Of a stretch of DNA of 64,000 bases, positions 2,166 through 44,589 are shown one piece after another; position 1 is the stretch's first letter; each line of letters begins with the position of its first letter. Source of the DNA: Dictyostelium discoideum (lineage: Eukaryota). The notes beneath the pieces are model-generated. The model was not told where the DNA came from. It saw only the letters and a list, made by a program, of their open reading frames with translations, and searched no databases. The stretch lies in assembly GCA_000004695.1 (NCBI GenBank), contig CM000154.2, positions 2,560,001 through 2,624,000 on the forward strand, given 5' to 3'. Position numbers and translations under genes: made by a program.

Positions 2166-2169
2166 ATTA

Positions 2170-3725: not shown

Positions 3726-3761
<36 letters not shown>

Positions 3762-4818: not shown

Positions 4819-4849
<31 letters not shown>

Positions 4850-6834: not shown

Positions 6835-7702
6835 TTTTCTTTTGAGAAAACAAAAAAAATAAAAAAAAAAAAAAGTAAAAAAAAAGTCAAGATTTAAATT
6901 TTAAAAATAAAATAAAATAAAAATAAAAATAAAAAAAAAAAATATAAATAGATTAATTTCAATTTATTAATTTAATTATAAAAATAAATGAAAAAATAAT
7001 AATAAAAATAATTATAAAATATTTTAGGGTGAAGTATGAAATTTTCTTATTTTACCTTTTTTTTTATTTTTTTTTATTATTCTTCAAAGTGAAGATATGA
7101 ATAAACAGTGTTGTAAACGAAAATAAAAATAAAAATAAAAAATATAAAAAAATTATAAAAAAAAAAAAAAAATCAAAAAAAAAAACGAAATCAAAATTAA
7201 TTTTTTTTTTTTTTTTATTATTTTATTTTTATTAAGTAGAATTGGTTTAAATTTACAAAAATAGAAAACAATCATTATCAAATCTGTCATTGCTTTTATT
7301 TAATTTTTTTTTTTTCTTGAAAATATATTTTTTTTTTTTTTTTTTGTTTCTCATTAAAACAAAATATAATTATTATTTTTATTTTTTAATTTTTTTTTTA
7401 TTAATATTTCATTACTGTTTCTCATTAAAACAAAATATAATTATTATTTTTATTTTCTAATTTTTTTCATCTTTTTGTTTTTTTCTTTATTATAATTTTT
7501 TTTTTTTTTTTTTTTTATTAATATGTGGATTTTTTTCCTATAATTAGATTATCTCACAACTATATATTTTCATAATTTCATTTTGTGGTGGTGTGGTGAG
7601 AGTGTTTCAAAAAAAAAAAAAAAAATCATACAATATTGTAATTTTATGGGAAGGTGAGAAAAACAGTGAGTATAGGTGTATACTAGTATTTGTACACAAT
7701 AA

Positions 7703-7739
<37 letters not shown>

Positions 7740-7961
7740 GTTGTGTTTCTTTTTCAATTTATTCAAATTATATTATTATTATTATTATTTTTTTTTTTAA
7801 AAAAATAAAGTTAAATCTTCATATAATAGGGTGTGAGATCATATAAAAAAACCAAATGATGAATTATGTTGTTATATCGTTTAACAATTATTATGTACTT
7901 ATAAGGTTAAAAATTACTTTATCAAATTTGAAATAATAATAATAAAAAAATGAATAAAAAA

Positions 7962-7994
<33 letters not shown>

Positions 7995-8087
7995 AAATAA
8001 AAATAAAAATAAAAAATTACAAATTAAAAATAAATAATAAATAAATAAAATAATTATAGTTCATAATTTGGTAATAGCGTTTTTTTT

Positions 8088-8123
<36 letters not shown>

Positions 8124-8585
8124 TTTATTCCATTTTATTTTATTTCATTTTATTTTTTCTTTTTTTTTTTATTTTTATTATTTTTTTTTATTTCTTTTTT
8201 TTATTTTATTTTTCCTATTTTATTATATTTATTTTTTTTCTACTGTATATGTCCATCTACTTACTTTGTACAAATTTGAACACTCACACTATTTTACTTT
8301 TAATAAAAAAAAATAAAAAAAAAAAAAAAATTATTTTTTTATTGGCTCCATATCATAAATAAAAATAGTGTTTAAAAATCGCTTTTATATCAATATTAAA
8401 AATTTAGATTATATTGTACATTAAATTTGATTATTATTATAATAAAAAAATTAAATAAAATAAATAAATAAAAAATAAATAAAAAAAAAATAACTAATTT
8501 GTTGTTATTTTTGAGGTTAATTAAAAAAATACAAATAAAATAAAATAAATAAAATAAAATAAATAAAAAATAAAATAAAATAAAA

Positions 8586-8624
<39 letters not shown>

Positions 8625-8807
8625 TAAATACTCCAACTACCAAATCTAATTCAATCAATTATTTATAGAGTACATTATAAAATTACAAATTGTAAAAAAT
8701 AATAATAATAATAAATAAAATTTAAAAAATAAAATAAATTTAGTAATAATAAAATTAATAATAATAATAAATTAAATAAAAATAGTAATATTACAAACTA
8801 ATTAAAA

Positions 8808-8820
8808 ATGACATTATTTG
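8808..8820 (+). CDS. small two-exon gene, exon 1 (MTLF-)
   Basis: ATGACATTATTTG|gtaagt, a classic donor. Confidence 0.4.
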
Positions 8821-8854
8821 GTAAGTCATTGTTATTATTTATAAAAATACAGTC

Positions 8855-8896
<42 letters not shown>

Positions 8897-8952
8897 GTGG
8901 AATCTTTAAAATCAAATTTCCTAATTTTTTTTTTTTTTTTTTTTTATCATAG

Positions 8953-9158
8953 AATCTTTAAAATCAATAAGCCCAGTTTCTAAAATTAATAACGATGGTG
9001 GAGTAATAGCGAATAATAAAATAACAGATCAATCAAATTATGGTATTAATGGTTTATCCGGATATGATGTACATAGAATTCCCGGTTATTCACCCCAAGA
9101 TTATTTCGAAACTACTGGATTTGGAAAAGAAGGTTATGTTGGTCCAAAATCATGTTAA
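8953..9158 (+). CDS. small two-exon gene, exon 2; ~73 aa product MTLFESLKSISPVSKINNDGGVIANNKITDQSNYGINGLSGYDVHRIPGYSPQDYFETTGFGKEGYVGPKSC
   Basis: Acceptor ..tatcatag|AATCTTTAAAATCAATAAG; frame continues from the exon-1 G. Typical Dictyostelium coding composition within AT-rich flanks. Confidence 0.4.
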
Positions 9159-9963
9159 CACTAGTAGTCTTTTTTTTTATGTTTTTTTTCCCCCATTTTT
9201 TTTAAATCTTTAATTAACTATTATTATTATTTTTTAAATTTCTTTTTTTAGTTAGAAAATAAAAAAAATAAAAAAAAAAAAAAAAAAAATAAAAAAAAAA
9301 AAAAATTAAAAAAATTAAAAAAAATATAAAGGTATTGTTTTCAATATTAAAATATTTAGTTTAAAATTTAACACCCTATAAAATATTTTTGGTTTAAATT
9401 TTTTTATTTTTTTTTTTTATTTAATTTAAAATTATTAATTAATTGTGTTATTATTTCATCATTGTTCGAAATTTCTACCAGTTAGAAATTCTAACCCTTC
9501 TTTTTCTATTAATGTTTTTAAAATTTTATTTTTTTTTATTTTTATTTTTTTTTTCATTTTTTATTTTATTTTAATTTTGTTTTAAATAATGTGGCACAAC
9601 TATGTTTCCCACACTGAAATTTAAAAACTAATCCAAATGAAACAAAGGTGACTAACTGCTAAAAAAAAATGAAATTTAGATATTTTTGAAAAAAAAAAAA
9701 AAAAATAGTTTTTTTAATTTTTTTGATAATTTTTTCCCATTACCTTGTCAGATATTTTTTTATTTTTTTTTTTATTTTAATTTTTTTTTTATTTTTATTT
9801 TTATTTTTTTTTTTTTATAATAATTCATCCTAATTTTTTTTTAAAAAAAAAGCAATAGAGAAAAAAAAAAAAACTTTTTTTTCATAAATCTTTAAAATAA
9901 ATTAATTGTATTATAAATTATCATTGTAAAAAAATAAAAAAAAATAATAAAATAAATTAAATA

Positions 9964-10017
9964 ATGGAACCAAGAACTTGTAGAATTTCAGTAGCAATTA
10001 GCTCACTCCTTGTATTT
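9964..10017 (+). CDS. small multi-pass membrane protein, exon 1 (MEPRTCRISVAISSLLVF)
   Basis: ATG then TTT|gtatgt donor. Confidence 0.45.
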
Positions 10018-10047
10018 GTATGTTTTATTTTTATAAATATTTCTTTC

Positions 10048-10079
<32 letters not shown>

Positions 10080-10302
10080 TAAAAAATAATAAAATAAAAT
10101 AAAATAAAATAAAATAAAACAAAATAAAATAAAAAAAGGGAAATTTTTTTTTTTTTTTTTTAATAATAAAAATAATTAATAATAAAATTCTAATAATATC
10201 TATTTTTATATTTTTTTGATCGCTTTGGAAAAAAAAATCAAAAAAAAAAAAAAAAAAAAAATCAAAATTTATAACTATTATTTATTATTTTTATTATTTT
10301 AG

Positions 10303-10647
10303 TTATTCGGTGTTACACAAGTTGTAATTACATTTTCAAATCAAAATATTGATACAAGTCATACATGGGCATTCTTTGCCAATGGTTGTACATGCACATT
10401 AACAGGTTTTGCAGGTATTTTAACAGCAATCTTTTCAAAGACAACATTCTCAAAAATCTACTTCCTTATGACATTTTTAACAGTTTTTGAAGCTATCATT
10501 GTCTATATCATTTTCAGTGCCGCCTTACCAAGTTACATTGAAGCAGCATGTGGTGGTACAACATTCTTTAATCACTATTGCCAAGGTATTAAAATTTATC
10601 TTTCATCTGCTACAAGTGTTTTCTGGTCTTGGATCCTTTTAATTCTT
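10303..10647 (+). CDS. small multi-pass membrane protein, exon 2
   Basis: ..attttag|TTATTCGGTGTT; LFGVTQVVITFSNQNIDTSHTWAFFANGCTCTLTGFAGILTAIFSKTTFSKIYFLMTFLTVFEAIIVYIIFSAALPSYIEAACGGTTFFNHYCQGIKIYLSSATSVFWSWILLIL|gtaagt. Confidence 0.5.
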
Positions 10648-10742
10648 GTAAGTAAATCTAAAATTAAAATCTAAAATCTAAAATCAAACAATTTATTAAT
10701 ATTTTTTATTTTTTATTTTTTTTCTCTTTTTCTCTTTTATAG

Positions 10743-10826
10743 CCAGCTTCATCATTCATTGCATGGAAAAATCTTACAGTTTCAAGATCTACTCCAGGTA
10801 ATATTGAAATGAACAGCAAAAACTAA
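10743..10826 (+). CDS. small multi-pass membrane protein, exon 3 (PASSFIAWKNLTVSRSTPGNIEMNSKN*)
   Basis: ..ttttatag|CCAGCT, in frame, stop TAA at ~10824. Confidence 0.4.
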   Translation, partial: PASSFIAWKNLTVSRSTPGNIEMNSKN

Positions 10827-11167
10827 ATTTAAAATTTAAAATTGTCTTATCCAAAAAAAAGCGAAATAAAATAACACAAATAATAATAAATTAAAAAAAA
10901 AAAAAAAAAAACAAAAAAAATAATATTAAAAAAAAAGAACAAATAATAATAATAATAATAACAATATTAATAATAAAATAAATAAATTCTGTACTGTAAA
11001 TTTAATAAACTATAAATAAAACTATTTTTGTTTAAAAAACCCGCCTTTTTTTTTTTTTTTTTTTAAATTTTTTTATTTTTATTTTTATTTTTTTTTTATT
11101 TTTTAATAAATTAATCATAAATATATATATATATATATACACAACATACCAAATACATAAAGATAAG

Positions 11168-11236
11168 ATGTTTACAAAAACAGCAATTGAATTAATTAAA
11201 GAATTAAGAGGAACAGATTCAATACCTCATTATAAT
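11168..11236 (+). CDS. gins1: GINS complex subunit Psf1, exon 1 (MFTKTAIELIKELRGTDSIPHYN)
   Basis: Matches the Psf1 N-terminus (human MFCEKAMELIRELHRA..); donor AAT|gtattt. Confidence 0.7.
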
Positions 11237-11330
11237 GTATTTATCAAAATATTTAAATCCATATATTATATTCTGAATAATATTATTATTATGGTACTAA
11301 CCAAACACCTCACCTTCATATAATAATAAG

Positions 11331-11398
11331 GATACATCAATTAAGGCGACCATCGATGAAATGATAGCATTATATGAAGATTTGATTAAAACTATTAC
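11331..11398 (+). CDS. gins1: GINS Psf1, exon 2 (DTSIKATIDEMIALYEDLIKTIT)
   Basis: Acceptor ..taataag|GATACA; donor AC|gtatgt (phase 2). Confidence 0.6.
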
Positions 11399-11507
11399 GT
11401 ATGTTATTTTCTTTTTTTTTTTTTTTTTATATTTTATTATCCCATTTCCTAACATTTTCTTTTTTTTCATCATTTAAATAATAATGATAATAACAATATT
11501 AATAAAG

Positions 11508-11946
11508 TGAACATAAAGAACAAAAAAAAGAACCATTTTATTTACAACATGCAATTACATTTCATAATAGTATTAATAGAGATAAAAGATGTATTTTAGC
11601 TTATTTAAATGAAAGATTGAATAGAATTAAAGAGTACAGGTGGAGTTCAGGTCAAAGTTTATTACCAGATCAATTAAAAGAGAGATTATCACAAAATGAA
11701 ATTCAATTCTTTTCAGAATATGATAAAATTTTAACAGAATACAATTCAAAGGTTGGTTTAGATTTAACAATTGATCCACAACCACCTAAAGAATTATATA
11801 TTGAAGTTAGAGTAATTAAAGAACTTGGTGAAGTAGTTTTAAACTCTGGATGTACTGTAAATTTAAATTTAAATACAACTCATTTTTTAAAAAGATCTGA
11901 TATTACAAATCTTGTAAAAAATGGTTCACTTGAACATATAATTTAA
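11508..11946 (+). CDS. gins1: GINS Psf1, exon 3
   Basis: Acceptor ..aataaag|T completes Thr. Encodes EHKEQKKEPFYLQHAITFHNSINRDKRCILAYLNERLNRIKEYRWSSG...PKELYIEVRVIKELGEVVL...LVKNGSLEHII*, collinear with human PSF1 (..[31 protein letters not shown]...SLYIEVRCLKDYGEFEV..LIRQGVLEHI). Confidence 0.75.
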
Positions 11947-12027
11947 ACAAATAAATAATACACACACACACAAATATTATTATTTTTGTTTTTATTTTTT
12001 TTTACTTTTATTTTTATTTTTTTATTT

Positions 12028-14892
12028 TTATTTTCTTGAATCGTTATCATTTGTTATTACCAGTTTTAAAATAGATTTGAATTTTTTTATATCATTACTA
12101 GAGTAGATAGTATCTTGATTACCAATTGATGAAGGAGGTAATTGAAGTATACCAGTTAATAATCTTTTACAATGATGGCAATATTCTTTTTTCGAAAGTT
12201 GTAGTTGTTGTTGTTGATGAGGATTAAGATGAAGATTTGGATTATCACTTGAATTCTTTTTAAAGATTAAACAAGAACAAGTGAGTTTTTCATCAATGAT
12301 CATGGTTATAGTTGAATTATCAGATTTTACAAATAATTTAATACCATCATTTTTATAATTTTGAACTGCGATTAGAGTGTTTTCATTCTTGCTATAATTA
12401 TCGACCCTTGTTAAAGATTTACCATTAACTGTAGAGATTGGATAAGGAGATGAAGGATCTTGTAATTCATATTGATCTTCACCCTCTGTTATATATTCGT
12501 CACTAAAACTTGGACTATAGAAATCTTTTTCCATGATATCTAAAAATGTTTTTAATTTCGATTCGAAAAAGTCTTTTTCTAAATGACCATTTGTTAAGGG
12601 ACAAACTTTTTTTAAACTTTGACAAAATTCATTTCTAATCGTTAAGAAACCATTAACAACCACCAATGGTAATATTAAAGTTGAAAAATCTGGGAAATCG
12701 TGCTTTAATTTTTCAACTAAATCTCTATATCTATCGATTGAATCATTTTCAACTTTTTTAACTTCATTTTCACTGTATACACCATCTCTTGATGGATCAA
12801 TAACTGAAATATCAATAATTGCAATCATTTTACCATTTTCTTTTTCAAATAAATTTGGTGTTAATTGTGGTATATTATTATTATTATGATATTGTTGAGG
12901 TATATGTTGTTGTTGTTGTTGTTGATGCTGTTGCTGTTGTTGTTGTGGTGGTACTAAAAATAATAAGAAATCAGGTGTTACTCTCCATTCTAAAGTTGGT
13001 GTATAAAATAATTTTTCATATTTTTCAGTGATTGGATTTATAAGTTTATATTCAATAGGTTCATATTTTGATTTAACCTCTTGAGTGAAATCATGTGGGA
13101 ATTGAGTTGCATTTGTAATTTCAATTGAATGTAATAATTTGAATCTTGGTGAACTATATTCTAAATGAAATTTCTCTTTAAATTTAGAATCCAACCAAAT
13201 TAATATCTCCCTTGCAATGAATTTACTAATTTGATTATGAATTGATAATCTTGATGTGAATTTATAGATATCTTTCATACTGACAGTTCTAGCGATTTCT
13301 TTAGTATGAAGTGTGGTCTCCTCTTTAGTATGAAGGAAAACCAATTCTACAATTTCCAAATCCATAGTTTGAATAGCTTTTGCTAGACTATTGGTTGGCA
13401 TTGGTTCGAATCTATTTTTACATAACCATTGAATAGCTTTTAAACTCCTACTTTCAATTGCATTAATTAGGGAGAAACTTGCAACACCATAGAAATTTTG
13501 ATGAATCATTTCCATGATCTCAATGTTTGCATGTTTTGCTGCCCAATCCATTGATTCGGTGAATACTCTATGTTTAACTTTGAAATAGGGAGGATTTCTC
13601 TTTGTGATTAATCCTTCCAATAAATGTTTGAAAGTTCTACTTTGATTACCTTTTGCAGCATATTCAAAACATTTAATTGTAACATCAAATAGTTTAAGTT
13701 GATCATCATCCGCTAATATCTCTTGAATCTTTAAATTTAAATTTGGTGATGATGATTGACACATTGCATCGAAAACCGATGAAAGGTTAACACCTCTAAC
13801 ACGTAGATGCTCCAATACCATTAAATTACCTTTACTTGCAATTTCACATAATAACTCTTTAGTTAATTCATATGGTTGTTTAACTCTATCCTCTAAAAAG
13901 AAAACACAATCCATATGACCATTTAATAATGCACCATTCATTGCTTTTGTCGTACAAATTTGATAATCTTTAAATTTTTTATCTGTTAAATCTAATAAAT
14001 GTAATTTTTTTTGATTATTATTATTATTATTATTATTATTATTTGATGTTGTTGTTGTTGTAGTTGTTGTAGTAGTTGTTGTAGTTGTAGTTGTAGTTTG
14101 ATTTGTTGATTTTTTCTTTTTCTTTGATTTTGATTTTGATTTTAAAGTTGGAATGTCCTCAATTGAGAATCTTTTTGGTTGTATATTATCATTGTAGTGA
14201 ATGATTTTAACTAAGAAAAAGAAAAGAAAAGATAAGATTTTAATAAAACCAAATGTTGAAGCTAAATCTAAAGCTTGTGGAGATATTGGTTTATTTTTAT
14301 GTGCTAAATAAACTACAACATCGTAATGACCATTCTTTGAGGCATTGATTATTGCATTTTCAGTGCAACCCTCATTTCTGTTGTTCATTAAGAATTTGAC
14401 GATATTGAGATGACCTTTTTCGGCTGCTTTATCCATCGCATTCGTTGTTACTAACCAATTACCCCAACTTAATGAATTCTCCCATGAATGTAGAGTTTTT
14501 AAAATTTTATAATAACCACCTTCACAAATTGCATCGATTATATCAATTGTGTTAAGGAAAACATTTTGACATGAATCCAATAGGAAATCCAATAATTTTT
14601 CATTACCTGCTGATCTTGCTATTGTACATAGTACATATCCATTCACTGTGTTTAAAATTTGTGAAAATTGAATTAAATCGAATTTCAACGAGAATTCAAA
14701 TTTGTCTAAAAGTAATGAAAAATATCGATTTCTAACCATCCAAACGCTGTTGGTAATATCGTCATAATAAAGTGTACGAAACATTCTTTTATCTCTTATA
14801 AAACCAATTATATGTTCTCTTAAAACTTTACTATTCCAAACTTTACGAAATAAAAAATCGCAATCCCTATTTTCTTTTACCTTTAAAACCAT
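12028..14892 (-). CDS. large ankyrin-repeat-containing protein with poly-Thr/poly-Asn/poly-Gln tracts (paralog family A; N-terminal LFRKVWNSKVLREHII motif)
   Basis: 954-aa uninterrupted ORF; ANK-like motifs AAEKGHLNIVKFLMNN, NASKNGHYDVVVYLAHKN, AAKGNQSRTFKHLLEG; T18 and Q-runs typical of Dictyostelium. Confidence 0.75.
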   Translation of the reverse strand: MVLKVKENRDCDFLFRKVWNSKVLREHIIGFIRDKRMFRTLYYDDITNSVWMVRNRYFSLLLDKFEFSLKFDLIQFSQILNTVNGYVLCTIARSAGNEKLLDFLLDSCQNVFLNTIDIIDAICEGGYYKILKTLHSWENSLSWGNWLVTTNAMDKAAEKGHLNIVKFLMNNRNEGCTENAIINASKNGHYDVVVYLAHKNKPISPQALDLASTFGFIKILSFLFFFLVKIIHYNDNIQPKRFSIEDIPTLKSKSKSKKKKKSTNQTTTTTTTTTTTTTTTTTSNNNNNNNNNNQKKLHLLDLTDKKFKDYQICTTKAMNGALLNGHMDCVFFLEDRVKQPYELTKELLCEIASKGNLMVLEHLRVRGVNLSSVFDAMCQSSSPNLNLKIQEILADDDQLKLFDVTIKCFEYAAKGNQSRTFKHLLEGLITKRNPPYFKVKHRVFTESMDWAAKHANIEIMEMIHQNFYGVASFSLINAIESRSLKAIQWLCKNRFEPMPTNSLAKAIQTMDLEIVELVFLHTKEETTLHTKEIARTVSMKDIYKFTSRLSIHNQISKFIAREILIWLDSKFKEKFHLEYSSPRFKLLHSIEITNATQFPHDFTQEVKSKYEPIEYKLINPITEKYEKLFYTPTLEWRVTPDFLLFLVPPQQQQQQHQQQQQQHIPQQYHNNNNIPQLTPNLFEKENGKMIAIIDISVIDPSRDGVYSENEVKKVENDSIDRYRDLVEKLKHDFPDFSTLILPLVVVNGFLTIRNEFCQSLKKVCPLTNGHLEKDFFESKLKTFLDIMEKDFYSPSFSDEYITEGEDQYELQDPSSPYPISTVNGKSLTRVDNYSKNENTLIAVQNYKNDGIKLFVKSDNSTITMIIDEKLTCSCLIFKKNSSDNPNLHLNPHQQQQLQLSKKEYCHHCKRLLTGILQLPPSSIGNQDTIYSSNDIKKFKSILKLVITNDNDSRK

Positions 14893-15994
14893 ATTGTTTT
14901 TTATTCCATCTTTATTTTCACTTTTTATTGACCCTTTATTTTCATTTTCATTTTTAATTTCTTTAATTTTTTCTTTTTTTTTTTCTTTTCTATTTTTTTT
15001 TTTTTTTTTTTTTTTAAAAAAATTTAATGTTATTTACATTAATTATTAAATTAATAAAATTTCTTTCTTTTTTTCTGTTTTTTTTTTGTTTTTAAAAAAG
15101 TGAAGAAAGAAAGAAATAAAGAAGAAAAAAACAAAAAAAAAAAAGAAAATAAAAATAAAAAATTTAACTTACTCTTCTTGTTCTATATCTAATTCTTCAT
15201 TATGGTTAAGATCTTTTAAAACGTATAAAGAGCATGTATAATTACTTTGTTTAATTTTATATTCTTCAACACTATAGCTATCAAAAAAGATGACTATAGT
15301 TTTTGAAAATTGTGTTTCCATTTTTTAATGGTTAATAAAAAAAAAAAAAATTTCATAAAAAAAAAAAATTTTGAAATTTTGAGCTTTTAAAAAAAATAAA
15401 TGAAATAAAATCAAAAAAGGTTTAATAAAATAAAAAAAACGTATTAAAATAAAAAAATTTTATTTTATTTTATTTTATTTTTATTTTTTTTTTTTTTTTT
15501 AATAATAAGAAATAATTTTTCAAATGATAAAACTAATAAGTTTTTAAAAAAAAAAAAAATCAAATTTTTTTTTAATTTTTTTTTTTTTTTAATTTAATTT
15601 CAGTTTTCACTATTATCCAAAATTTAATATATTAAAATCCGTTTGGCGTTTCATGAAACACATTGTTGTGTTTTTTTAGGAAATTTTTTTTAAAAAAATA
15701 AAAATTTTATGTGAAAATTTGTGGGAAAATGATTTAAAATTCAATATCATGCACCAATAAATAATTATCATTTGGAATCAAAGGAGGTTATCTTAATCTA
15801 CTTAATGGACCATCTGGTTGTTGGCATGAATTTGAGTTAATATTAAATGAAATATTCGTTATATTAAATATTTTTTAATTTTACTGTAAATGTTAAAAAA
15901 AATAAAAAAATTTTTTTTTTTTGACTTGTAAAATATAATTTAAATAATTTTTTTAATTATCATTATCATAAAAATAAAACAAATTCACATTTTT

Positions 15995-16115
15995 TTTTAG
16001 ATATTTATCATTGAATTACCAATAGCATTATAATAACATATGTTTTTAATATGGATATCGAAATTAAAATTATTTATTTATTTTGAAAAAAAAAAAATAA
16101 AAAAAAAACAGAATA
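15995..16115. repeat. ~120-bp dispersed non-coding repeat, copy 1 (3' flank of the 7-TM gene)
   Basis: ttcacattttttttt..attgaattaccaatagcatt.ta....tgtttttaatatggatat.gaaat.aaaattatttattt..(a)n..cagaataa is shared with 22065-22205. Confidence 0.6.
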
Positions 16116-16361
16116 ATTAAAAAAAAAAATAATTAAAAAAAAATTTTATGGCATTGTAAAAACCATTGGACATACCAAAGAGCTAAAAAAAGGAAAAAAA
16201 AAAATAAAATAAAAGTTTAATCCTCAACTTGGACTAAATCAAATTTGTCAAATCGATTTTGGAAAGACCCCCTGTCTGAAATAATTAATATTTTAAAAAA
16301 AAAAAATTTCTTTATTATTTATAAAAAAAAGAATTCTTTTTAAATATTGTTTTGATCAAAT

Positions 16362-17167
16362 TTAAACTTCAGAAGAATTTGAAACACTTATATTATTGGA
16401 ATCAGATATTTGAACATCGATTGTATTTGAATAATGAGTTGAAATATGAGTAACAGATAAAGCCAATTCATTGGCACCATTTGAACTACCACTAGAACCT
16501 TTACTACTATCTGAGCCTACCATTGACTCTGGATAACCTAATAATAATCTAATCTTTCTACAGGTTTCAGATCTACCAAAAATAATTAATGCAGCATAAC
16601 AATTGATTAATTCAAGAGCAAAGAAACCAATATTAATCCAATCTTCAGCATCTGAATCTCTTCCAATGGTAACATAAACAATATTGATAACCCAAAGTAC
16701 AATACCAAGAAAAGATGTAACACCAATGAGACCTTTAACTTTTGAAACAAGCATTTCATCATGTTGAGTCCTATTCTTATTGTGGTAAACTTGTTTTAAA
16801 ATTTTAAAACCAAAGAAACCAAGTGATCCAGTAATTAATGCGGCTGAACAAATGAAATATAATCTCCAAGTTGTATCGATAACTTTACTATAACTACCAT
16901 CAACCAATACTATAACTCCGATTGTAGTATAAAACACCAATGACATAATAACATTACCAATTATAATTCTATCAACAGTTGCAACTCTCTCAAAATGTAC
17001 ACGTTTATCCATATATACAACTGCTAATTTCATTAAAAGTAATACAATAAAAAAGAATTCCATTGCAAAAAATTGTACACTCCATCCATAAATAATACAT
17101 ACAATTTTATTAAGATGTGGTGCTTTAGTATTAAATATCCATGCTAATATACCTGTTGCAATTCTAA
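16362..17167 (-). CDS. seven-transmembrane receptor-like membrane protein, exon 2
   Basis: Acceptor tttttag|TTAGAATT (phase 1); 7 hydrophobic helices in total; Ser-rich C-terminal tail ...SDSSKGSSGSSNGANELALS... Confidence 0.65.
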
Positions 17168-17241
17168 CTAAAAATAATATTAAAGTTAATTTAATAATAA
17201 AATAAAAAAAAATAAAAAAAAAAATCAATTGTATTACTTAC

Positions 17242-17437
17242 ATAAAATTGCTATCATCATACTAAAAAATACCAGAAATGGAATTGATTTTAAGTACATC
17301 CTTTTTAATTTTTGATTCAATTTTTTAGATTTTTGAACTTCAATATAAATATGATATAAAACTATAAATAAAAGTGGGACATACCACATACCTTCTAAAA
17401 AATATATCCACGCCCCTCTTATTTTTTCTTGTACCAT
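17242..17437 (-). CDS. seven-transmembrane receptor-like membrane protein, exon 1
   Basis: MVQEKIRGAWIYFLEGMWYVPLLFIVLYHIYI...MIAIL then T|gtaagt donor. Confidence 0.6.
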
Positions 17438-17493
17438 TTTATTATTATTTTTATTATATTTTTATTAATATTTTTTTTTAATTATTAATGTTA

Positions 17494-17526
<33 letters not shown>

Positions 17527-18277
17527 TTTTATTTTATTTATTTTTTTTAATAATTATTTTTATTCTATTTGTTATTTTTTTTTTATTTTTTATTTTTTCT
17601 ATTATGATTAATTAAATTTATTTAAAAATAAAAAAAAAAAAATCAACTGACCATGTTTTTTTTTTTTTTTTTAACAGTTTTTAGGATAATATTTTATTTT
17701 AATTATTTTTATTTTTTATTTTATTTTTTTTACAACCTTTATTTTTATAAGGTGGAAACTAAGATATTTTTTTTTGGTTGGAGTAAAAAACCATTGCAGA
17801 AAAATATCTTTAAACTAAAAATAAAAAAATATGAAAAACATGAAAAATAGGACACGGATGCTTTTTTATTTTTTTTTTAATTTTTTTTTTTTAAGATATT
17901 TCCCGCATTATTTGAAATTCTTTTTTTTTTTTTTTTCATAATCAAAAAAGAAAAAAAAAAAAAAAAAAAAAGATATTTTAAAAAAAAAAAAAAAAAAAAC
18001 AAAGGAACTAATCAAAAACAAACATTAAAAAAAACAAATTTATAATTTTCACCATTGTTAATGGCAGGGGGGGCCTTTTTTTTTTTTTTTTTTTTTTTTT
18101 GGAAAAAAAATTGGCGGAAAAAAAAATTTTTTTTTTTTTTTTTTTAACCCTAAAAAAAATAAATTTTTTTTTTTTTTTTGCGCGAAAAAAAATTTTTTTA
18201 AAAACAAAAACCCCTTTAAATCCCAAGCCTTTTCTTTGGCAAAAGGTTTTTTTTTTTAAATTTTTTTAAATTTTTTT

Positions 18278-18377
18278 NNNNNNNNNNNNNNNNNNNNNNN
18301 NNNNNNNNNNNNNNNNNNNNNNNNNNNNNNNNNNNNNNNNNNNNNNNNNNNNNNNNNNNNNNNNNNNNNNNNNNNNN
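18278..18377. other. assembly gap (100 N), flanked by G/C-run low-quality-looking sequence
   Basis: n run; 17880-18277 has odd ggggggg/ttttt runs. Confidence 1.
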
Positions 18378-18512
18378 CAAAGAAATAAACGAGAATTTAT
18401 ACATATAATAAATAAATCACTGTTATATCTTCACCGCCACATTCATTCCTCTTAATTTTACCCTTTTTTTGCTCAATAAAGCAAGGGCTATCGTCCTATA
18501 TACTTTTCAACA

Positions 18513-19446
18513 ATGGCTGATGATCACTCAACTGAATTACAGTTAAATCATACAGATAACAACACAACCAATACAAATAATACCTCCACAACCTCAACAA
18601 CAAAAAACAAAAGTGCAAAAATCGACACACCTAAAAAACAAACCCCAACAAACCAACTCTCACTAAACAAAGGACTTGATAATCAATTAGATATCATTGC
18701 ACCTCCATCAATCACAAGACCACTCTCTTTCTTAGAAAAAAACAATAACACCATCAACATTAAGTGTTACTTTAACCAACCACACATCCGTGAAGAATTA
18801 ACCTCAAAAGATGACACAAGAATTCAACAAATTCACAAAAACATTCACAAACTCTTCGAAGATATACTGTCGCAATCAGCATTCAAAATAATTGGTGCAA
18901 CTGCCTTCGTAAATTGCAACGTCGATAAATTAACTTCAATAATCAACCTTCAAAACCAACTTGCACTAAATATCGACAAACTCAACTATAGATTCGATAT
19001 ATCATCAAATGATTATGCAATCATTAAAACATTCATTAAAACGTACTCACCCAAACATGCAAACGATGCAATTACAAACAACCTCACTAAATTCACCAGT
19101 TGTACATCAATTGAATCATTTACTGTCACATACTCATATGCTGTTGCGTTTAAAAGCTACATTATAACATATCATCTAATTGATCACACACACAACATTG
19201 TTGATCAAAAGATCGAACAACCATCTGGTATCACAAGATATATCAAAGCTGCAACACGTAGTGTCACTAAACACAAAATTCAACATGCAAAAAATGCAGA
19301 TATGGCAACAACTATAAAAAATGCCATCACGAACCCAAACATGAACAAAAACAATCAACCACCAAAAAACAACATTAACACCCCACCAATCAACGAAATT
19401 GCAAATTCCAATCGCAATAATAACTCACTTCAAAATAGTGGTTCAA
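18513..19446 (+). CDS. A/C-codon-biased ORF of unknown function (MADDHSTELQLNHTDNNTTNTNN...); composition resembles Dictyostelium non-LTR retrotransposon ORF1 rather than a host gene; truncated by the gap
   Basis: 311 codons open; third positions dominated by A/C (aca aac caa cca), like TRE5-A ORF1 at 34114. The 5' leader 18380-18512 is not AT-rich. No recognisable domain. Confidence 0.4.
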
Positions 19447-19546
19447 NNNNNNNNNNNNNNNNNNNNNNNNNNNNNNNNNNNNNNNNNNNNNNNNNNNNNN
19501 NNNNNNNNNNNNNNNNNNNNNNNNNNNNNNNNNNNNNNNNNNNNNN
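19447..19546. other. assembly gap (100 N)
   Basis: n run. Confidence 1.
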
Positions 19547-32677: not shown

Positions 32678-33137
32678 ATTTCTTTTTATAATTAATAAAA
32701 TTGTTTTTTTTTTATTTTATTTTTTTTTATTTTTTTTTTTTTTGTTTATTAATTATCTTTGTTTTCTTTTTTTCTAAAATTTTTTTATTTATTTTGTATT
32801 TTGTAATTTTTTTTTTTTTTTTTTTTTTTAAATTAATTATTGATTGTTCAATTTAAATTTTTTTTTTTTTTTTTAATTTAATTTTATTTTAATTATTAAA
32901 ATTTTTATTATTTTCACTTTTTTTTTTTTTTATTTTAAATTTATTTTCTTACCAATTGGCAATCTACTTTTTATTTTTTTTTTATTTTTTTTTTTTTTAT
33001 TTTTTTTTTTTTTTTTTTTTTGAAGGGAATCATCACTCCTTAAAATGGATAAAAACAACCACTTTTTGTTTTTTTTTTTTTTTAAATGCGAGATAATTTT
33101 TTTTTTTAAATAAAATTAATAATTTAATATTAATATT

Positions 33138-33211
33138 TGTGTGTTAAGGTAAATTAAAAAACAATTATATTAATATTTTATAATTGTTTTTTAATTTACA
33201 ATTAACACACA
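33138..33211. repeat. ~32-bp near-perfect inverted repeat (hairpin) with 9-nt loop, in the spacer between the GS gene 5' side and the tRNA
   Basis: tgtgtgttaaggtaaattaaaaaacaattata-ttaatattt-tataattgttttttaatttacaattaacacaca. Confidence 0.7.
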
Positions 33212-33581
33212 TAAAAATTAAATAAAAAGATTGGAGATTTATTTAATTTTTTTTTTTAAATTAATTTTTTCCTTTTGTAAAAAATAGAAAAAATCATGTT
33301 AGCTTCAAAATTTATTTAATTTTTAAAAATAAATAATATACTAATATATAATATTTAATATTTACCCTACTGTCTCATTTGTGTGTAGAACACTATTGCC
33401 AATTTTATTGATTATTTATTAGTGGGATTGAAGATTACAATTTCGGTACAAGAATTGGTTGGAACTAGTTTTGATGTTATTTAGATGCACCGCAATCAAC
33501 TCAAGACGTTTTTAATCTTGGAACTTTATTTATAGCTTCCACTTTCATGTATCTCTGAAATTCTGAACTGAAAAAAAGTAA

Positions 33582-33592
33582 GGCATCGAACC
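33582..33592 (-). promoter_or_regulatory. external B box (ex-B) ~32 nt downstream of the tRNA gene
   Basis: Minus strand GGTTCGATGCC matches the pol III B-box consensus GGTTCGANTCC; Dictyostelium tRNA genes commonly carry a downstream ex-B box. Confidence 0.55.
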
Positions 33593-33623
33593 AGCGATGT
33601 AATCTTGGTGTTTTAAAAAAATT

Positions 33624-33696
33624 CACCCATTGTGGGTCTCGATCCCACGACCTGCAGCTTAGAAGGCTGCCGCAATTCCAACTTTGCTAAACGGGC
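33624..33696 (-). tRNA. tRNA-Arg(UCU): tRNA-Arg (anticodon UCU)
   Basis: Minus: GCCCGTT-TA-GCAA-AGTTGGAA-TTGC-G-GCAGC-CTTCTAA-GCTGC-AGGTC-GTGGG-ATCGAGA-CCCAC-AATGGGT-G. 7-bp acceptor stem (2 G-U pairs), D and T stems perfect, U33, anticodon TCT, A37; 73 nt. Confidence 0.8.
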
Positions 33697-33729
33697 TTTG
33701 ATGAAATTAAAAATATTACCCGAAATTAT

Positions 33730-34001
33730 AACTCAATTCAATCAAAAAAACAAACAACAACAACAATCTCTTTTTTTGATTATTTCATTTTTCATATAAA
33801 AAAGACTTAAAAAACAAATAAATAAATAAATAAACTATTTTAAAAAGCCATCTTTTTACTTTATTGTAATTTATTATTTGTTTCGTTTTGAGAATTTTGC
33901 GTAGCAAAATTTTCAAAAAAAAAGCAAAAAATAATCAGATCGAAAAAAACAAACAACAACAATCTCTTTTTTTGATTATTTCATTTTTCATATAAAAAAG
34001 A

Positions 34002-34037
<36 letters not shown>

Positions 34038-35744
34038 GGAACCCAAGTTAATCAGAAAATTTCCAGATTTTTAACTTTTTAAAGAAAAATAAAAAAAATA
34101 GAAAGAAAATAAGATGAAAATCACAAACAACACCACAAATATTAAGCAACACAAATGCCTACAAAAAATAAGCGAAATTGTGGATAAAACTCAATTAAAA
34201 AAAAAACAATTCAAATACGTCATAAACATCAATCACGAACCAGACGATAAAATAAAAAAAGATTTAGAAAAAAGTTTGGACAAAAAAGATGTTTTAATCA
34301 AAAGTAATAATACATTCAAAATTCTCACAGACAGTATTAGTACAGTAATCTATTTTGTAAATATGTTTGATGCAGAATTAAAAGGACAATTTATAACCAC
34401 TATAAGACCAAAAAATATGTATACAGATTTTGATTGGTATAAATCACTCACAGAAATAGAATGGGTAATAGAAAATGAAGGATGTAAACTAATTAAATTA
34501 GAAATTAAAGGCGAAACTCTAATTATCAAAACAGTGAAAAGAGTCGTAGAAGAATTTGACACTATCATTGAACTAGACAATCTAACATTAATTGGACACT
34601 CCAACAAAGGATGGAGAGATCAAACCTCATTACCAGAAAATCAAGAAGAAAACAAAAATAAAAAACAATCAGATGAACAACAACCACAATCTACATCAGA
34701 ACAAATACCAAAACAAGGAAAAAGAACAATCATTATCCCACCAATCACATCCTCATCTAATGATAAAACATTTATGGCCCTAGATGATACAGCTCAAAAG
34801 GTAATAGAAGCATCACTAGAAAACGTAGATGAACTAACAAGAATAGAGAATGAGATCAATACACAATCGATAAACAATCAAGAAATTAAAACAAAATCAG
34901 AAAAACCTATCGAACCACCATCTCCATACAATACACCAATAAAACAACACGGCGAAACAAAGGGACTAACAACGGAAGAAAAACTTAGAGAGGCAAATGA
35001 TATCTTCGACTTCACCAGCCCAAACACTGATGCAATAAGAAAAATAGAATTCCCACTTTCAATCCCTTCAAATCAATGGTTCTTCTCCTCTCCAATAAAA
35101 CATATCATGAGTTTCAGCCCAACCTATGGTACACCATCGAAAATTATCGATTCACCAAGTAAATTGTTAAACACACCAAAAAAGAAACAACAAGACAAAA
35201 CAAACAAGACCAACAAAACACCAGTCAAACCAAAATTGGGTGAATATGGACAAAAAAGCATAAAAACAAAAATGGATGAAGATATAGACAACTTCAACAA
35301 GGAAATTCTAAAACAAATCAATAAATCAAAAAACCCCACAAACACACAAGACCAACAACACAACGAACAAAGTAAAGATCAGTTAGAAGACAAAATAAAC
35401 CAGAAACTTCAAAAGGTAGATAAAAATTTACCCCAAATAAAACTATAAAGAAAAACCCAATAAGAATAGGTGTTTGGAACATCCAAGGATCCAACACCAT
35501 CCAATCTGCCAGCATAATAAACACCGTTTTAGACAACAACAAGCTGGACGCAGCACTTTTAACTGAAACAAATATAAAAACAAATAAAATTTACTCAATA
35601 AATCAACAATATAAAAACAAAATAACACCCCACGCACCAATTGATAAAACAGGACAAGGGGTGTCACAAATCATCATCAACACCCGCAATAGAACTTCCT
35701 AAACATCTCAAAAAATACAATAATTCACTCAGTACTTTCTATAA

Positions 35745-35779
<35 letters not shown>
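33730..35779 (+). mobile_element. TRE5-A (DRE) non-LTR retrotransposon, copy 1 (two A-modules, B-module, ORF1, truncated ORF2 stub, oligo-A), starting ~48 bp upstream of the tRNA 5' end
   Basis: A-module repeats at 33745-33815 and 33940-34010; ORF1 34114-35448; oligo(A) 35746-35779; position relative to the tRNA fits the known TRE5 target preference. Confidence 0.8.
34114..35448 (+). CDS. TRE5-A ORF1 protein
   Basis: 444-aa ORF MKITNNTTNIKQHKCLQKISEIVDK..., A/C-rich codons; followed at 35451-35700 by an ORF2 N-terminus (KNPIRIGVWNIQGSN.., APE-type endonuclease start) that terminates after ~83 codons. Confidence 0.8.
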   Translation: MKITNNTTNIKQHKCLQKISEIVDKTQLKKKQFKYVININHEPDDKIKKDLEKSLDKKDVLIKSNNTFKILTDSISTVIYFVNMFDAELKGQFITTIRPKNMYTDFDWYKSLTEIEWVIENEGCKLIKLEIKGETLIIKTVKRVVEEFDTIIELDNLTLIGHSNKGWRDQTSLPENQEENKNKKQSDEQQPQSTSEQIPKQGKRTIIIPPITSSSNDKTFMALDDTAQKVIEASLENVDELTRIENEINTQSINNQEIKTKSEKPIEPPSPYNTPIKQHGETKGLTTEEKLREANDIFDFTSPNTDAIRKIEFPLSIPSNQWFFSSPIKHIMSFSPTYGTPSKIIDSPSKLLNTPKKKQQDKTNKTNKTPVKPKLGEYGQKSIKTKMDEDIDNFNKEILKQINKSKNPTNTQDQQHNEQSKDQLEDKINQKLQKVDKNLPQIKL

Positions 35780-35879
35780 NNNNNNNNNNNNNNNNNNNNN
35801 NNNNNNNNNNNNNNNNNNNNNNNNNNNNNNNNNNNNNNNNNNNNNNNNNNNNNNNNNNNNNNNNNNNNNNNNNNNNNNN
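35780..35879. other. assembly gap (100 N) between two TRE5-A copies
   Basis: n run. Confidence 1.
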
Positions 35880-37225
35880 AATATAAGACCAAAAAATATG
35901 TATACAGATTTTGATTGGTATAAATCACTCACAGAAATAGAATGGGTAATAGCGAATGAAGGATGTAAACTAATTAAATTAGAAATTAAAGGCGAAACTC
36001 TAATTATCAAAACAGTGAAAAGAGTCGTAGAAGAATTTGACACTATCATTGAACTAGACAATCTAACATTAATTGGACACTCCAACAAAGGATGGAGAGA
36101 TCAAACCTCATTACCAGAAAATCAAGAAGAAAACAAAAATAAAAAACAATCAGATGAACAACAACCACAATCTACATCAGAACAAATACCAAAACAAGGA
36201 AAAAGAACAATCATTATCCCACCAATCACATCCTCATCTAATGATAAAACATTTATGGCCCTAGATGATACAGCTCAAAAGGTAATAGAAGCATCACTAG
36301 AAAACGTAGATGAACTAACAAGAATAGAGAATGAGATCAATACACAATCGATAAACAATCAAGAAATTAAAACAAAATCAGAAAAACCTATCGAACCACC
36401 ATCTCCATACAATACACCAATAAAACAACACGGCGAAACAAAGGGACTAACAACGGAAGAAAAACTTAGAGAGGCAAATGATATCTTCGACTTCACCAGC
36501 CCAAACACTGATGCAATAAGAAAAATAGAATTCCCACTTTCAATCCCTTCAAATCAATGGTTCTTCTCCTCTCCAATAAAACATATCATGAGTTTCAGCC
36601 CAACCTATGGTACACCATCGAAAATTATCGATTCACCAAGTAAATTGTTAAACACACCAAAAAAGAAACAACAAGACAAAACAAACAAGACCAACAAAAC
36701 ACCAGTCAAACCAAAATTGGGTGAATATGGACAAAAAAGCATAAAAACAAAAATGGATGAAGATATAGACAACTTCAACAAGGAAATTCTAAAACAAATC
36801 AATAAATCAAAAAACCCCACAAACACACAAGACCAACAACACAACGAACAAAGTAAAGATCAGTTAGAAGACAAAATAAACCAGAAACTTCAAAAGGTAG
36901 ATAAAAATCTACCCCAAATAAAACTATAAAGAAAAACACAATAAGAATAGGTGTTTGGAACATCCAAGGATCCAACACCATCCAATCTGCCAGCATAATA
37001 AACACCGTTTTAGACAACAACAAGCTGGACGCAGCACTTCTAACTGAAACAAATATAAAAACAAATAAAATTTACTCAATAAATCAACAATATAAAAACA
37101 AAATAACACACCACGCACCAATTGATAAAACAGGACAAGGGGTGTCACAAATCATCATCAACACCCGCAATAGAACTTCCTAAACATCTCAAAAAATACA
37201 ATAATTCACTCAGTACTTTCTATAA

Positions 37226-37280
<55 letters not shown>
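35880..37280 (+). mobile_element. TRE5-A copy 2, 5'-truncated by the gap (ORF1 from codon ~97, ORF2 stub, oligo-A)
   Basis: 35880-37226 is ~99% identical to 34395-35745; oligo(A) 37227-37280. Confidence 0.75.
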
Positions 37281-37281
<1 letters not shown>

Positions 37282-37285
<4 letters not shown>

Positions 37286-37631
37286 GGAACCCAAGTTAAT
37301 CAGAAAATTTCCAGATTTTTAACTTTTTAAAGAAAAATATAAAAAATAGAAAGAAAATAAAATGAAAATCACAAACAACACCACAAATATTAAGCAACAC
37401 AAATGCCTACAAAAAATAAGCGAAATTGTGGATAAAACTCAATTAAAAAAAAAACAATTCAAATACGTCATAAACATCAATCACGAACCAGACGATAAAA
37501 TAAAAAAAGATTTAGAAAAAAGTTTGGACAAAAAAGATGTTTTAATCAAAAAGACCCTGTAAAAAAAAAAAAAAAATAAAATGAGATCTAGCATCTCAAG
37601 GAGAAGCAAATAATAATTGCGTTATCCAATT

Positions 37632-37665
<34 letters not shown>

Positions 37666-38240
37666 ACTCAATTCAATATAAGGTTGAAAATTATAATTAA
37701 AGTGGTCTAAAGTACTTTATTTATTTTATATTTTAATTTATTTTTATATTTATTATAACTTTTATAATATTTTATTTTATCTTAATTTTATTATCTAATC
37801 TTTATTTTGAAATTTAACAATCCCTTTTATATTTATATATTTATTTATTACACTAATAGCTTATATAGCTTTAATTTAAATCACAATATATAAAGAAAAG
37901 TTAATTATTTTCAATATTTATATTAATTTAAATGAGTGACATAATTATTAATAAATAATTATTTTATATTTTTATGTTTGCTGATTTTAATAAAATTATT
38001 ATTTGAGATATTATGACACTAATTTGAATAAAAGCGAAATAGGTTTAATTATAAAATAGTAGCCCTTATTTTAAAAACAAAAATTTAATACAACTATAAT
38101 ATAATCAAAATTCAACTAATTTAGAACAAAAAAAAATAAAATAAAATAAAAGCTTTATAAAAAATTAATTTATGAGAATTAAAAACTCTAATTAAAATGA
38201 GAACAATTGCATTATCTAATTTAAAAAAAAAAAAAAAAAA
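37282..38240 (+). mobile_element. internally deleted TRE5-A fragments: B-module + first 66 codons of ORF1 + short tail (37282-~37650), then a C-module-like 3' region ending in oligo-A (~37655-38240)
   Basis: aacctgggaacccaagttaatcagaaaatttccag.. B-module and ATGAAAATCACAAACAACACC repeat the 34030-34310 sequence; two A-tailed ends (..aattgcgttatccaattc(a)n and ..acaattgcattatctaattt(a)n). Confidence 0.65.
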
Positions 38241-38433
38241 ATGAAATTTAAGATATTTTAAGCCTTGTGCAAAAAGAATCAAATGACGCAATTTGATTTT
38301 TTTTTTTTTTCACGGTTTGGAATTCCAAAAAATATCTTAAAAAAAAAAAACAGTTGTTTTTTATACACAAAAAAAAAAAAAAAAAAAAAAACTATTTTAT
38401 TTTTTATAGTAAACATTTTTAAACTAAAAAAAA

Positions 38434-39534
38434 ATGAATATAATTAAATCATTATCAATATTAATTTTATTTACAATTTTAATTAATGTTATATCATCAC
38501 AATCATCATCAGGTGATGATTCAATGCCAATTTTATTATCATTTTTTAGTAACGACCCAAGTAGAGATACATTATTTAAATTTAATAGAGTTGATTTAGA
38601 GGATGGTTCATTAAATATTACCCTTTACACTAGATATACAGCCTATGGTAAAATGTTGGGTGTTACTGGATATGATGGTGTTAATTGGTTTGATTATCAA
38701 TTTAAATATGAAACGGATCCAGATGAATTCCAAGACGGTGGTATCTCTGATTTAGGACAAGGTGATTCATCAGCTTCATGGATGAACGCAGATTTCTATG
38801 AAACCCATCCAGCCCTTGTAGACTATAATCCACATCCAATAGGTCAAGACGATGCACGTAGTGAATACCTTAGTGTTGGTTGGTCAAAGAAAACTCAAGC
38901 ATTATTAACACTCGGTTTCAATTATGTCGGTAACAATATGTTCTTTTATTATAATATAACTCAATATCAAGTTAGCGAGGCCTATGAAAATAGTTTAACC
39001 CAATGTTATGATTACACTCAAGGTTTAATGTACATAAATTATATTAACCCAACAAGCACCCAAAGACAAATTCTAGTTTATCAACCATTCAATCATTCAG
39101 ATGGTATATGCATTGATGAATATTCATTCGAGCCAGGCACAGATCTTACCAAATCAGTTGAATCCAATGTTTATCTTTTCTATTCAACCGTTGGAAATCA
39201 AAAAGAAAGTCCACTCTATATGGTTGAAGTTGCAAATGTTACAGGCACAAATTCAACCGTTAATTTATTATCAGTTGGTTTATCTGCCACTGGTTACACT
39301 GCATCAAGTAGTGTCATCTTATCTTTAGATAATAGTTATGGTTCAAATATTGATGGTATTCCATTATGCTATTTAGATCAACTTCATCAATATTTAATCT
39401 TATTATCAAAACCAACTTCAAAAATGTCTTATACTATTACAACTGTTGATCTTATTAATAATTATAAAACTACTTCAATTACAACTGATGTTGTTGATTT
39501 TTATAATTATGGTTTATATTACCAAGATAAATAA
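38434..39534 (+). CDS. secreted protein of unknown function (signal peptide, N-glycosylation sequons)
   Basis: MNIIKSLSILILFTILINVISSQ signal peptide; 366-aa single ORF. Confidence 0.65.
   Translation: MNIIKSLSILILFTILINVISSQSSSGDDSMPILLSFFSNDPSRDTLFKFNRVDLEDGSLNITLYTRYTAYGKMLGVTGYDGVNWFDYQFKYETDPDEFQDGGISDLGQGDSSASWMNADFYETHPALVDYNPHPIGQDDARSEYLSVGWSKKTQALLTLGFNYVGNNMFFYYNITQYQVSEAYENSLTQCYDYTQGLMYINYINPTSTQRQILVYQPFNHSDGICIDEYSFEPGTDLTKSVESNVYLFYSTVGNQKESPLYMVEVANVTGTNSTVNLLSVGLSATGYTASSSVILSLDNSYGSNIDGIPLCYLDQLHQYLILLSKPTSKMSYTITTVDLINNYKTTSITTDVVDFYNYGLYYQDK

Positions 39535-40671: not shown

Positions 40672-44589
<3,918 letters not shown>

Follow-up and report, generated by a model that had tools for sequence, protein, structure and literature searches.

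A single TRE5-A.2 retrotransposon, very probably written twice in part, beside a tRNA-Arg(UCU) gene of Dictyostelium discoideum

The tRNA gene and the element beside it

A 64,000-nucleotide stretch of the Dictyostelium discoideum genome (GenBank assembly GCA_000004695.1, contig CM000154.2, positions 2,560,001 to 2,624,000 of the forward strand; hereafter the window, whose own numbering is used unless another locus is named) carries, at 33,582 to 38,240, a tRNA-Arg(UCU) gene and, upstream of it, sequence of the retrotransposon TRE5-A that an initial annotation had read as a tandem array of internally deleted elements. Here we find that this sequence has the anatomy of one TRE5-A.2 element enclosed by one target-site duplication (TSD), that an independent gapless assembly has a single copy at the same place, and that the few differences between the two large copies in the window lie toward the contig ends that meet at a run of 100 N. 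The apparent array is very probably the sum of two things, modules of one TRE5-A.2 that were read as copies and a contig overlap that was left unmerged.

The tRNA gene and its accompanying signals lie as follows.

33582-33592, minus strand: external B box (ex-B box), GGTTCGATGCC, 31 bp past the 3′ end of the tRNA
33615-33621, minus strand: run of seven T (T7) directly 3′ of the tRNA, resembling an RNA polymerase III (Pol III) terminator, read from the sequence
33624-33696, minus strand: tRNA-Arg(UCU) gene, called by ARAGORN (anticodon tct) and matched by Rfam RF00005
Within 33624-33696, minus strand: A box, TAGCAAAGTTGG, and internal B box, GGATCGAGACC (with A54, G59 and A60)

This is the one tRNA gene that ARAGORN finds in the window, and RF00005 matches it over its full length with 59.2 bits (gathering score 29, E=2.5e-11), in agreement with the initial annotation; an Rfam E-value scan of 33000-38600 returned the tRNA and no further match. 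Pol III terminates at runs of T, and the T7 run would act as such a terminator. Taken together, the predicted cloverleaf, the covariance-model score, the A and B boxes, the T run and the ex-B box agree with a eukaryotic tRNA gene that has a Pol III type 2 promoter and a dictyostelid ex-B box. The motif GGTTCGANNCC occurs once in the 64 kb, at the ex-B box, where 0.04 matches would be expected, and starts at +32 from the tRNA end; among seven tRNA genes of the window and the related loci five have the motif at +31 to +36, and this offset is common to Gly, Pro, Ile and Lys tRNA genes of the related loci. Such a recurrent offset marks GGTTCGATGCC as the dictyostelid external B box, as had been proposed. 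Against the consensus GGTTCGAATCC the internal B box scores 8/11 and the ex-B box 9/11, which upholds the earlier remark that the internal box and A54 deviate and that the ex-B box is the closer of the two. The T-loop (33635-33645, minus strand) reads AUCGAGA, with A54 and A60, a pattern best known from eukaryotic initiator tRNA; A54 is also present in a tRNA-Ala(AGC) gene at one of the comparison loci (L007, 263-336). Since the gene is fully conserved in two divergent isolates (see below) and A54 recurs in tRNA-Ala(AGC), the A54 pattern seems to be a trait that runs in some of the elongator tRNAs of Dictyostelium, as opposed to a sign of decay.

Read away from the tRNA gene, the element and the gap inside it are made up of the following parts.

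33728-33742, plus strand: left copy of the TSD, ATAACTCAATTCAAT, identified as a direct repeat and by reading
33743-33942, plus strand: A-module, a promoter module of 200 bp, sharing 99-100% identity with its counterparts in the other TRE5-A.2 and TRE5-A.1 copies compared
33943-34004, plus strand: partial second A-module, made up of the module's first 62 nt, a direct repeat that precedes the B-module in every copy examined
34005-34033, plus strand: A29, the oligo(A) that separates the A from the B module inside the element, a canonical part and not an element end
34034-34323, plus strand: 5′ B-module, 290 bp, containing the start (34114) of open reading frame 1 (ORF1)
34114-35448, plus strand: ORF1, 444 aa, 51.3 kDa, an exact protein match to DDB_G0277285/DDB_G0293690 of D. 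discoideum AX4
35424-35702, plus strand: ORF2 remnant in the -1 frame, overlapping ORF1 by 25 nt and covering the N-terminal part of the endonuclease domain
35686-35746, plus strand: last 61 nt of ORF2, now out of frame, 100% identical to the ORF2 3′ end of TRE5-A.1 copies
35747-35779, plus strand: A33, the internal oligo(A) that follows ORF2 and precedes the 3′ B-module; the left contig breaks off within it
35780-35879, no strand: placeholder gap of exactly 100 N
35880-37281, plus strand: 34399-35779 represented again, from nt 288 of ORF1 through the ORF2 remnant to oligo(A) A54; most likely the left copy's DNA, from an overlapping contig
37282-37551, plus strand: 3′ B-module, of which 270 nt are kept, the first 80 nt being of TRE5-A.1 type in the window
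37552-37632, plus strand: 3′-terminal part of the C-module, 81 nt, with ~69 nt lost at the B/C junction relative to TRE5-A.1
37633-37662, plus strand: terminal oligo(A) tail, A31, read from the sequence
37663-37677, plus strand: right copy of the TSD, ATAACTCAATTCAAT, a direct repeat whose junction is the same in the independent assembly

Full-length TRE5-A is described as AB-ORF1/ORF2-BC, where A is a promoter module of 200 bp and B, of 290 bp, defines the start of ORF1 and is duplicated in the 3′ untranslated region (UTR), and TRE5-A.2 as AB-ORF1-BC with a large deletion in ORF2 and a further one of 72 bp in the BC region, after which the 3′-terminal 87 bp of C remain (PMC3159450); the published mass of the TRE5-A ORF1 product is 51 kDa (PMC5911963). 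The window element has the modular UTRs, the ORF1 of ~51 kDa and the -1-frame ORF2 of TRE5-A, and the large ORF2 deletion and the BC deletion of the TRE5-A.2 subtype. Its order of parts (A, partial A, oligo(A), B, ORF1, deleted ORF2, oligo(A), B, C remnant, oligo(A)) is the same in nine other TRE5-A.2 copies, and an A-run stands before the B-module in the 5′ UTRs of all fetched copies. The first base of the A-module is C here and G in the other copies. The ORF2 deletion joins 35685 to 35686 and removes 3,133 bp relative to a TRE5-A.1 copy (L011, 9573-12705); the B/C alignment gap of 69 nt corresponds to L011 13086-13154, and the mismatch with the published figures lies in A-runs. The ORF2 truncation that had been noted in both large copies stands, with corrected dimensions: the remnant runs for 86 codons, open from 35424 to a stop at 35700-35702, and is followed by a 44-nt tail and oligo(A) (~83 codons and 45 nt had been given), the tail being part of the out-of-frame last 61 nt of ORF2. 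The RNA of the C-module remnant is predicted to form two hairpins (z=-2.84).

In Pfam, which has no model for ORF1, neither ORF1 nor the 86-codon ORF2 remnant had a significant match to any family, and a homologue search with the ORF2 remnant returned a single unnamed protein of 123 aa. What identifies the element is therefore its architecture, together with the protein matches to AX4, which are exact, and the alignments with full-length copies, all of which support the TRE5-A assignment of the initial annotation. It is a known non-autonomous, tRNA-gene-targeted retrotransposon of the non-long-terminal-repeat class, TRE5-A.2 (formerly DRE), of ~2.4 kb and in its usual position: structure, ORF1, deletions, oligo(A) runs, TSD, position and orientation are the same and nothing of substance differs, except that the window, and not the independent assembly, has a TRE5-A.1-type sequence in the first 80 nt of the 3′ B-module and a doubled part across the N gap. 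TRE5-A.1 is 97.6-100% identical to the window element in its three modules (A, B and C), in ORF1, in the 237 nt that follow ORF1 and in the final 61 nt of ORF2; in contrast to the window element, which lacks 3,133 bp of ORF2 and ~70 bp at BC, it has a complete 3.4-kb ORF2 (APE, reverse transcriptase and zinc finger) and a complete C-module.

The TSD measures 15 bp, its first A being ambiguous with the oligo(A) tail, which falls within the published 10-16 bp (PMC9012585), and this single TSD encloses the entire region 33743-37662. The first base of the element, 33743, is separated by 46 bp from tRNA position +1 (33696), a distance within the published TRE5-A range (PMC5911963); the earlier placement of the element thus holds, the measured value replacing the ~48 bp given. 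As is the rule for TRE5-A, the element's 5′ end faces that of the tRNA (PMC5391098): the tRNA is on the minus strand, and the A-module and ORFs are on the plus strand and begin beside the tRNA 5′ end, which is the divergent orientation that had been reported. In the mechanism published for TRE5-A, TFIIIC positions TFIIIB on the B box of the tRNA gene and the ORF1 protein contacts TFIIIB; the element then integrates by target-primed reverse transcription ~50 bp upstream, leaving a TSD of 10-16 bp. TRE5-A.2, without most of ORF2, is mobilised in trans by the ORF2 protein of TRE5-A.1. Integration at this locus presumably took the same course.

The doubled stretch and the contig ends

The locus was compared with its counterpart in GCA_054883475.1, a D. 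discoideum assembly in which it was found, via the neighbouring gene DDB_G0289285 (38434-39534), on a gapless, chromosome-scale contig of 5.29 Mb (locus L001); full-length TRE5-A copies for alignment were taken from a public assembly. GCA_054883475.1 is probably the AX2-214 assembly of PMC12745789, where a coverage of 79x, Nanopore plus Illumina, is given for these assemblies. L001 contains one element (6847-9231, 2,385 bp) with the same tRNA, 5′ junction, 3′ junction and TSD as the window, and outside the element the two sequences differ almost solely in homopolymer lengths. The 5′ junction is specific to this copy, being formed by C+AAAAAAAC (C+A7) with exactly one full A-module in both the window and L001; of five other 5′ junctions read, four start with (C)AGATCG and one directly at the A-run. 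Real tandems are kept in the gapless assembly at other loci (L007, L009, L010 and L014-L016, the last with 36 A-modules and three ORF1-ORF2 units), and such structures are therefore not routinely collapsed in it.

The two large copies in the window (34401-35779 and 35882-37260) can be aligned ungapped along 1,379 nt, six of which mismatch (99.56% identity), much as the initial annotation had described them, at ~99% over 1.35 kb on the two sides of a 100-N gap. The left contig ends in a homopolymer and the right contig begins at nt 288 of ORF1, which is no structural boundary; in L001 the equivalent oligo(A) runs straight into the 3′ B-module. At each of the six differing positions all of 18 TRE5-A copies (TRE5-A.1 and TRE5-A.2) have one and the same allele, and each variant is private to one of the window copies. 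L001 has the left copy's bases at 34472-3, a site 74-75 nt from where the right contig starts, and the right copy's bases at 35428, 35457, 35559 and 35629, 150-351 nt from the end of the left contig; the chance of such clustering of differences at contig ends is ~2e-4. Because each of the six is private to one copy and absent from the 18 others, we rejected them as a sign of two diverged elements. The truncated ORF1 of the right copy (343 aa) has a private E-to-A change, and this 343-aa protein has no entry in the protein collection searched.

The start of the 3′ B-module (37267-37345; L001 8888-8916) is of TRE5-A.1 type in the window, with CCTGGG plus 29 nt and the “ATATAAAAAATAG” variant, and all nine TRE5-A.2 3′ B-modules of the gapless assembly, the one at this locus included, are without CCTGGG plus 29 nt. 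As this start is unlike L001 and every TRE5-A.2 copy, it suggests that the window sequence inside the repeat blends reads from several copies. It is explained either by a chimeric window sequence within the repeat or by gene conversion of this copy. The gap itself is one of five in the window (GC content 22%) that consist of exactly 100 N. Another of these, 19447-19546, corresponds in the gapless assembly to at least 7.1 kb or to a discontinuity and not to 100 bp, and the 100-N gaps are therefore placeholders without a size.

A junction between units would read either as C-oligo(A)-TSD-A (“CCAATTC(A)n ATAACTCAATTCAAT CAAAAAAACAAAC”) or as oligo(A)-B-ORF1 5′ part, and neither form occurs in the window sequence, where the two copies meet solely at the 100 N. 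A tandem array would be recognised by a sequenced junction of this kind together with spanning sequence at a copy number above one; the window and the gapless assembly both lack this combination at the locus. The array of internally deleted elements that had been proposed therefore loses its units: of the oligo(A)-bounded segments, 33743-34033 holds the A/A′ modules and 37282-37663 the B/C modules of an element with a single TSD. Nor do the two large copies behave as separate elements, since the gapless assembly has one and the six differences behave as errors at contig ends. The warning in the initial annotation that an assembly expansion might be at work is, in contrast, borne out by both of these observations.

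From the single TSD, the single copy in L001, the private differences and their positions at contig ends, the blended repeat and the unsized gaps, we conclude that this is very probably one element whose middle has been written twice; 35880-37281 is most likely the same DNA as the left copy, taken from an overlapping contig. The look of an array would have arisen in two ways. Internal oligo(A) runs separate the modules of one element, and both contigs would run into the element, the left stopping in the internal oligo(A) and the right starting at nt 288 of ORF1; abutted with a 100-N placeholder and not merged, they would represent 1.38 kb twice.

One element or two

Several points weigh against this conclusion. 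The stock or isolate behind the independent assembly is a different one, probably AX2-214, and the copy number in the window strain is presumed to be that of the gapless assembly; TRE5-A is active in laboratory strains and real tandems exist, such that a strain-specific duplication is possible; errors at contig ends would cluster in the same way even if there were two real, identical copies; and a long-read assembler could in principle collapse a two-unit tandem.

The window strain might, then, have a genuine internal tandem duplication, A-A′-[B-ORF1-dORF2-oligo(A)]x2-B-C. Unequal recombination of the 5′ with the 3′ B-module, or template switching, would have produced it, and the gap would hide only ~370 bp (the start of B and the first 287 nt of ORF1). 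Such a duplication would leave the outer junctions and the single TSD unchanged, as observed, and a similar structure is seen in the gapless assembly in the composite TRE5-A.1 at the tRNA-Pro locus L014-L016. We nevertheless consider it quite unlikely: a near-identical strain has one unit here, the six private differences at contig ends leave nothing in the sequence that requires two copies, and a two-unit tandem of 1.75 kb is unlikely to have been collapsed by an assembly that resolves the L014-L016 arrays. If present, an internal [B-ORF1-dORF2] duplication that the AX2-like strain lacks would be a B-module-mediated change of copy number within laboratory lineages, comparable to the composite of three units and 36 A-modules at L014-L016; this, too, is unlikely. 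Two separate TRE5-A.2 integrations in a TRE-TRE tandem, the younger copy beside the tRNA, would have the gap hide ~1 kb (3′ B, C, oligo(A), TSD, A, A′ and 5′ B to nt 287 of ORF1). TRE-TRE tandems are documented (PMC5391098; PMC9012585) and are present in the gapless assembly at L007, L009 and L010. Here, however, the copy-specific 5′ junction and the distal junction are the same in the window and in the single-copy assembly, so that an identical 15-bp target and 5′ end would have to have been used again, or the second copy lost later by recombination in the other strain, and one strain does show a single copy. Since the single-copy assembly matches both outer junctions, the copy-specific 5′ end included, two successive integrations rank below internal duplication in likelihood, and we regard them as highly improbable.

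It might also be argued that the window is correct and that the Nanopore assembly collapsed a real repeat at this locus. Collapse of repeats is a familiar failure of assemblers, and the 3′ B-module does differ between the two assemblies. Yet far more difficult arrays are resolved in the gapless assembly, whose 3′ B-module here has the form found in all eight other TRE5-A.2 copies, so that the window's stands apart, and the published Nanopore and Illumina coverage (PMC12745789) speaks against collapse as well; this reading is scarcely credible. A single TRE5-A.2 with an unmerged contig overlap thus remains very probably the correct description.

The locus itself is known biology, a textbook association of TRE5-A.2 with a tRNA gene, and says nothing new about the targeting of retrotransposons. 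It does bear on how the window assembly is read: a 100-N gap inside a repeat can hide redundant overlap, and, to judge from the TRE5-A.1-type start of the 3′ B-module, sequence within a repeat may draw on several copies at once. Hidden overlaps and blended repeats would therefore inflate TRE copy numbers and calls of tandem arrays that are made from this assembly.

The TRE-TRE tandems and composite arrays of the gapless assembly resemble the window in having repeated TRE5-A sequence upstream of one tRNA gene. In contrast to the window, whose sole ‘junction’ is a run of N, they have complete units, which are separated by a TSD in L007 and follow one another with a B-to-B period in L014-L016. 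L007 (JBTAPE010000004.1, 5433-10562, at a contig end) contains two complete TRE5-A.2 in tandem with a period of 2,579 bp, upstream of tRNA-Lys(UUU); ATATATCTAATTT stands before the first copy and between the copies, and both share the 5′ end. The contig ends in the oligo(A) of the second copy, and the array may be longer or this may be an effect of the assembly end. L009 contains a tandem of TRE5-A.2 and TRE5-A.1, and L010 contains TRE5-A.1, TRE5-A.2 and fragments. The composite TRE5-A.1 of L014-L016 (GCA_054883475.1, CM142511.1, ~3.02-3.04 Mb; L016 650-7907) lies upstream of tRNA-Pro(UGG) and consists of 36 tandem A-modules with a period of 199 bp, three B-ORF1-ORF2 units with a period of 4,890 bp and one terminal B-C; it looks like amplification inside one element by way of repeated modules.

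Older insertions and the surrounding sequence

The tRNA gene, A54 included, is 100% identical in two divergent assemblies of the D. discoideum group (L017 and L018), where the flanks are 85-92% identical. The ex-B box is intact in L018, and L017 reads TTGAACC for TCGAACC of the window. Both of these wild isolates lack a TRE5-A.2 at this locus. In L018 ~136 bp lie between the tRNA and the homologous flank. L017 (GCA_054859385.1, 8674-9190) carries, ~45 bp upstream of the tRNA, a ~430-bp element of another TRE5 family that is 5′-truncated and ends in poly(A); it is 78.6% identical to L013 13777-14217 and has 38% protein identity to the 3′ end of TRE5-A ORF2. At the spot of this insert L018 has only an A23 run (9126-9200).

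A trace of an earlier insertion was recognised in the window from repeats and from alignment to the full C-module.

38150-38241, plus strand: degenerate C-module-like 3′ end with oligo(A) (A19), a relic of an earlier TRE5 insertion

The relic has the orientation of the TRE5-A.2 and would lie ~0.6 kb from the tRNA once the TRE5-A.2 is removed. Its ortholog in L017 (9665-9751) is 81% identical to the C-module and better preserved than that of the window. As it is shared with a divergent wild isolate, the relic is an older hit on the same tRNA that predates the split of the strains. The comparison with the wild isolates shows that the TRE5-A.2 insertion is confined to the laboratory (NC4-type) lineage and that the tRNA gene, the C-module relic and the ex-B box, which one of the two isolates has intact, are older.

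Downstream of the tRNA, 33340-33540 is moderately GC-rich, as had been stated, with 29% GC against 10% in the adjacent intergenic DNA; 33365-33560, which begins 22 bp beyond the ex-B box, has 33% GC and no ORF of at least 50 aa. The suggestion that a TRE3-type element had inserted here finds no support: 33340-33540 has no blastn or tblastx similarity to two TRE3-like elements that encode reverse transcriptase downstream of tRNA genes (L003 and L004), these elements standing in for references of the four TRE3 families. The segment has no Rfam hit, and its one match in ~300 kb of other fetched D. discoideum sequence is a 33-nt patch (33501-33533), 91% identical to the orthologous intergenic region of L018. 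A reading of 33474-33560 by eye as resembling a box C/D small nucleolar RNA was dropped on account of an imperfect C box and the lack of an Rfam hit.

At the gap 19447-19546, the 7.1 kb of the gapless assembly beside window position 19547 hold the rest of a gene with a DNase_II domain, a TPR gene and an Arf-family gene, which have no counterpart in the window; the left 19 kb of the window (1-19446) hold different host genes (ankyrin, amine oxidase). This gap stands for missing sequence, a structural difference or a misjoin. Just upstream of the start codon of DDB_G0289285, 38412-38419 has three substitutions in 8 nt relative to the gapless assembly. Downstream of the same gene a long imperfect tandem repeat of short period (40950-41650) lies inside a large ORF and appears on the alignment of the locus as staggered self-matches.

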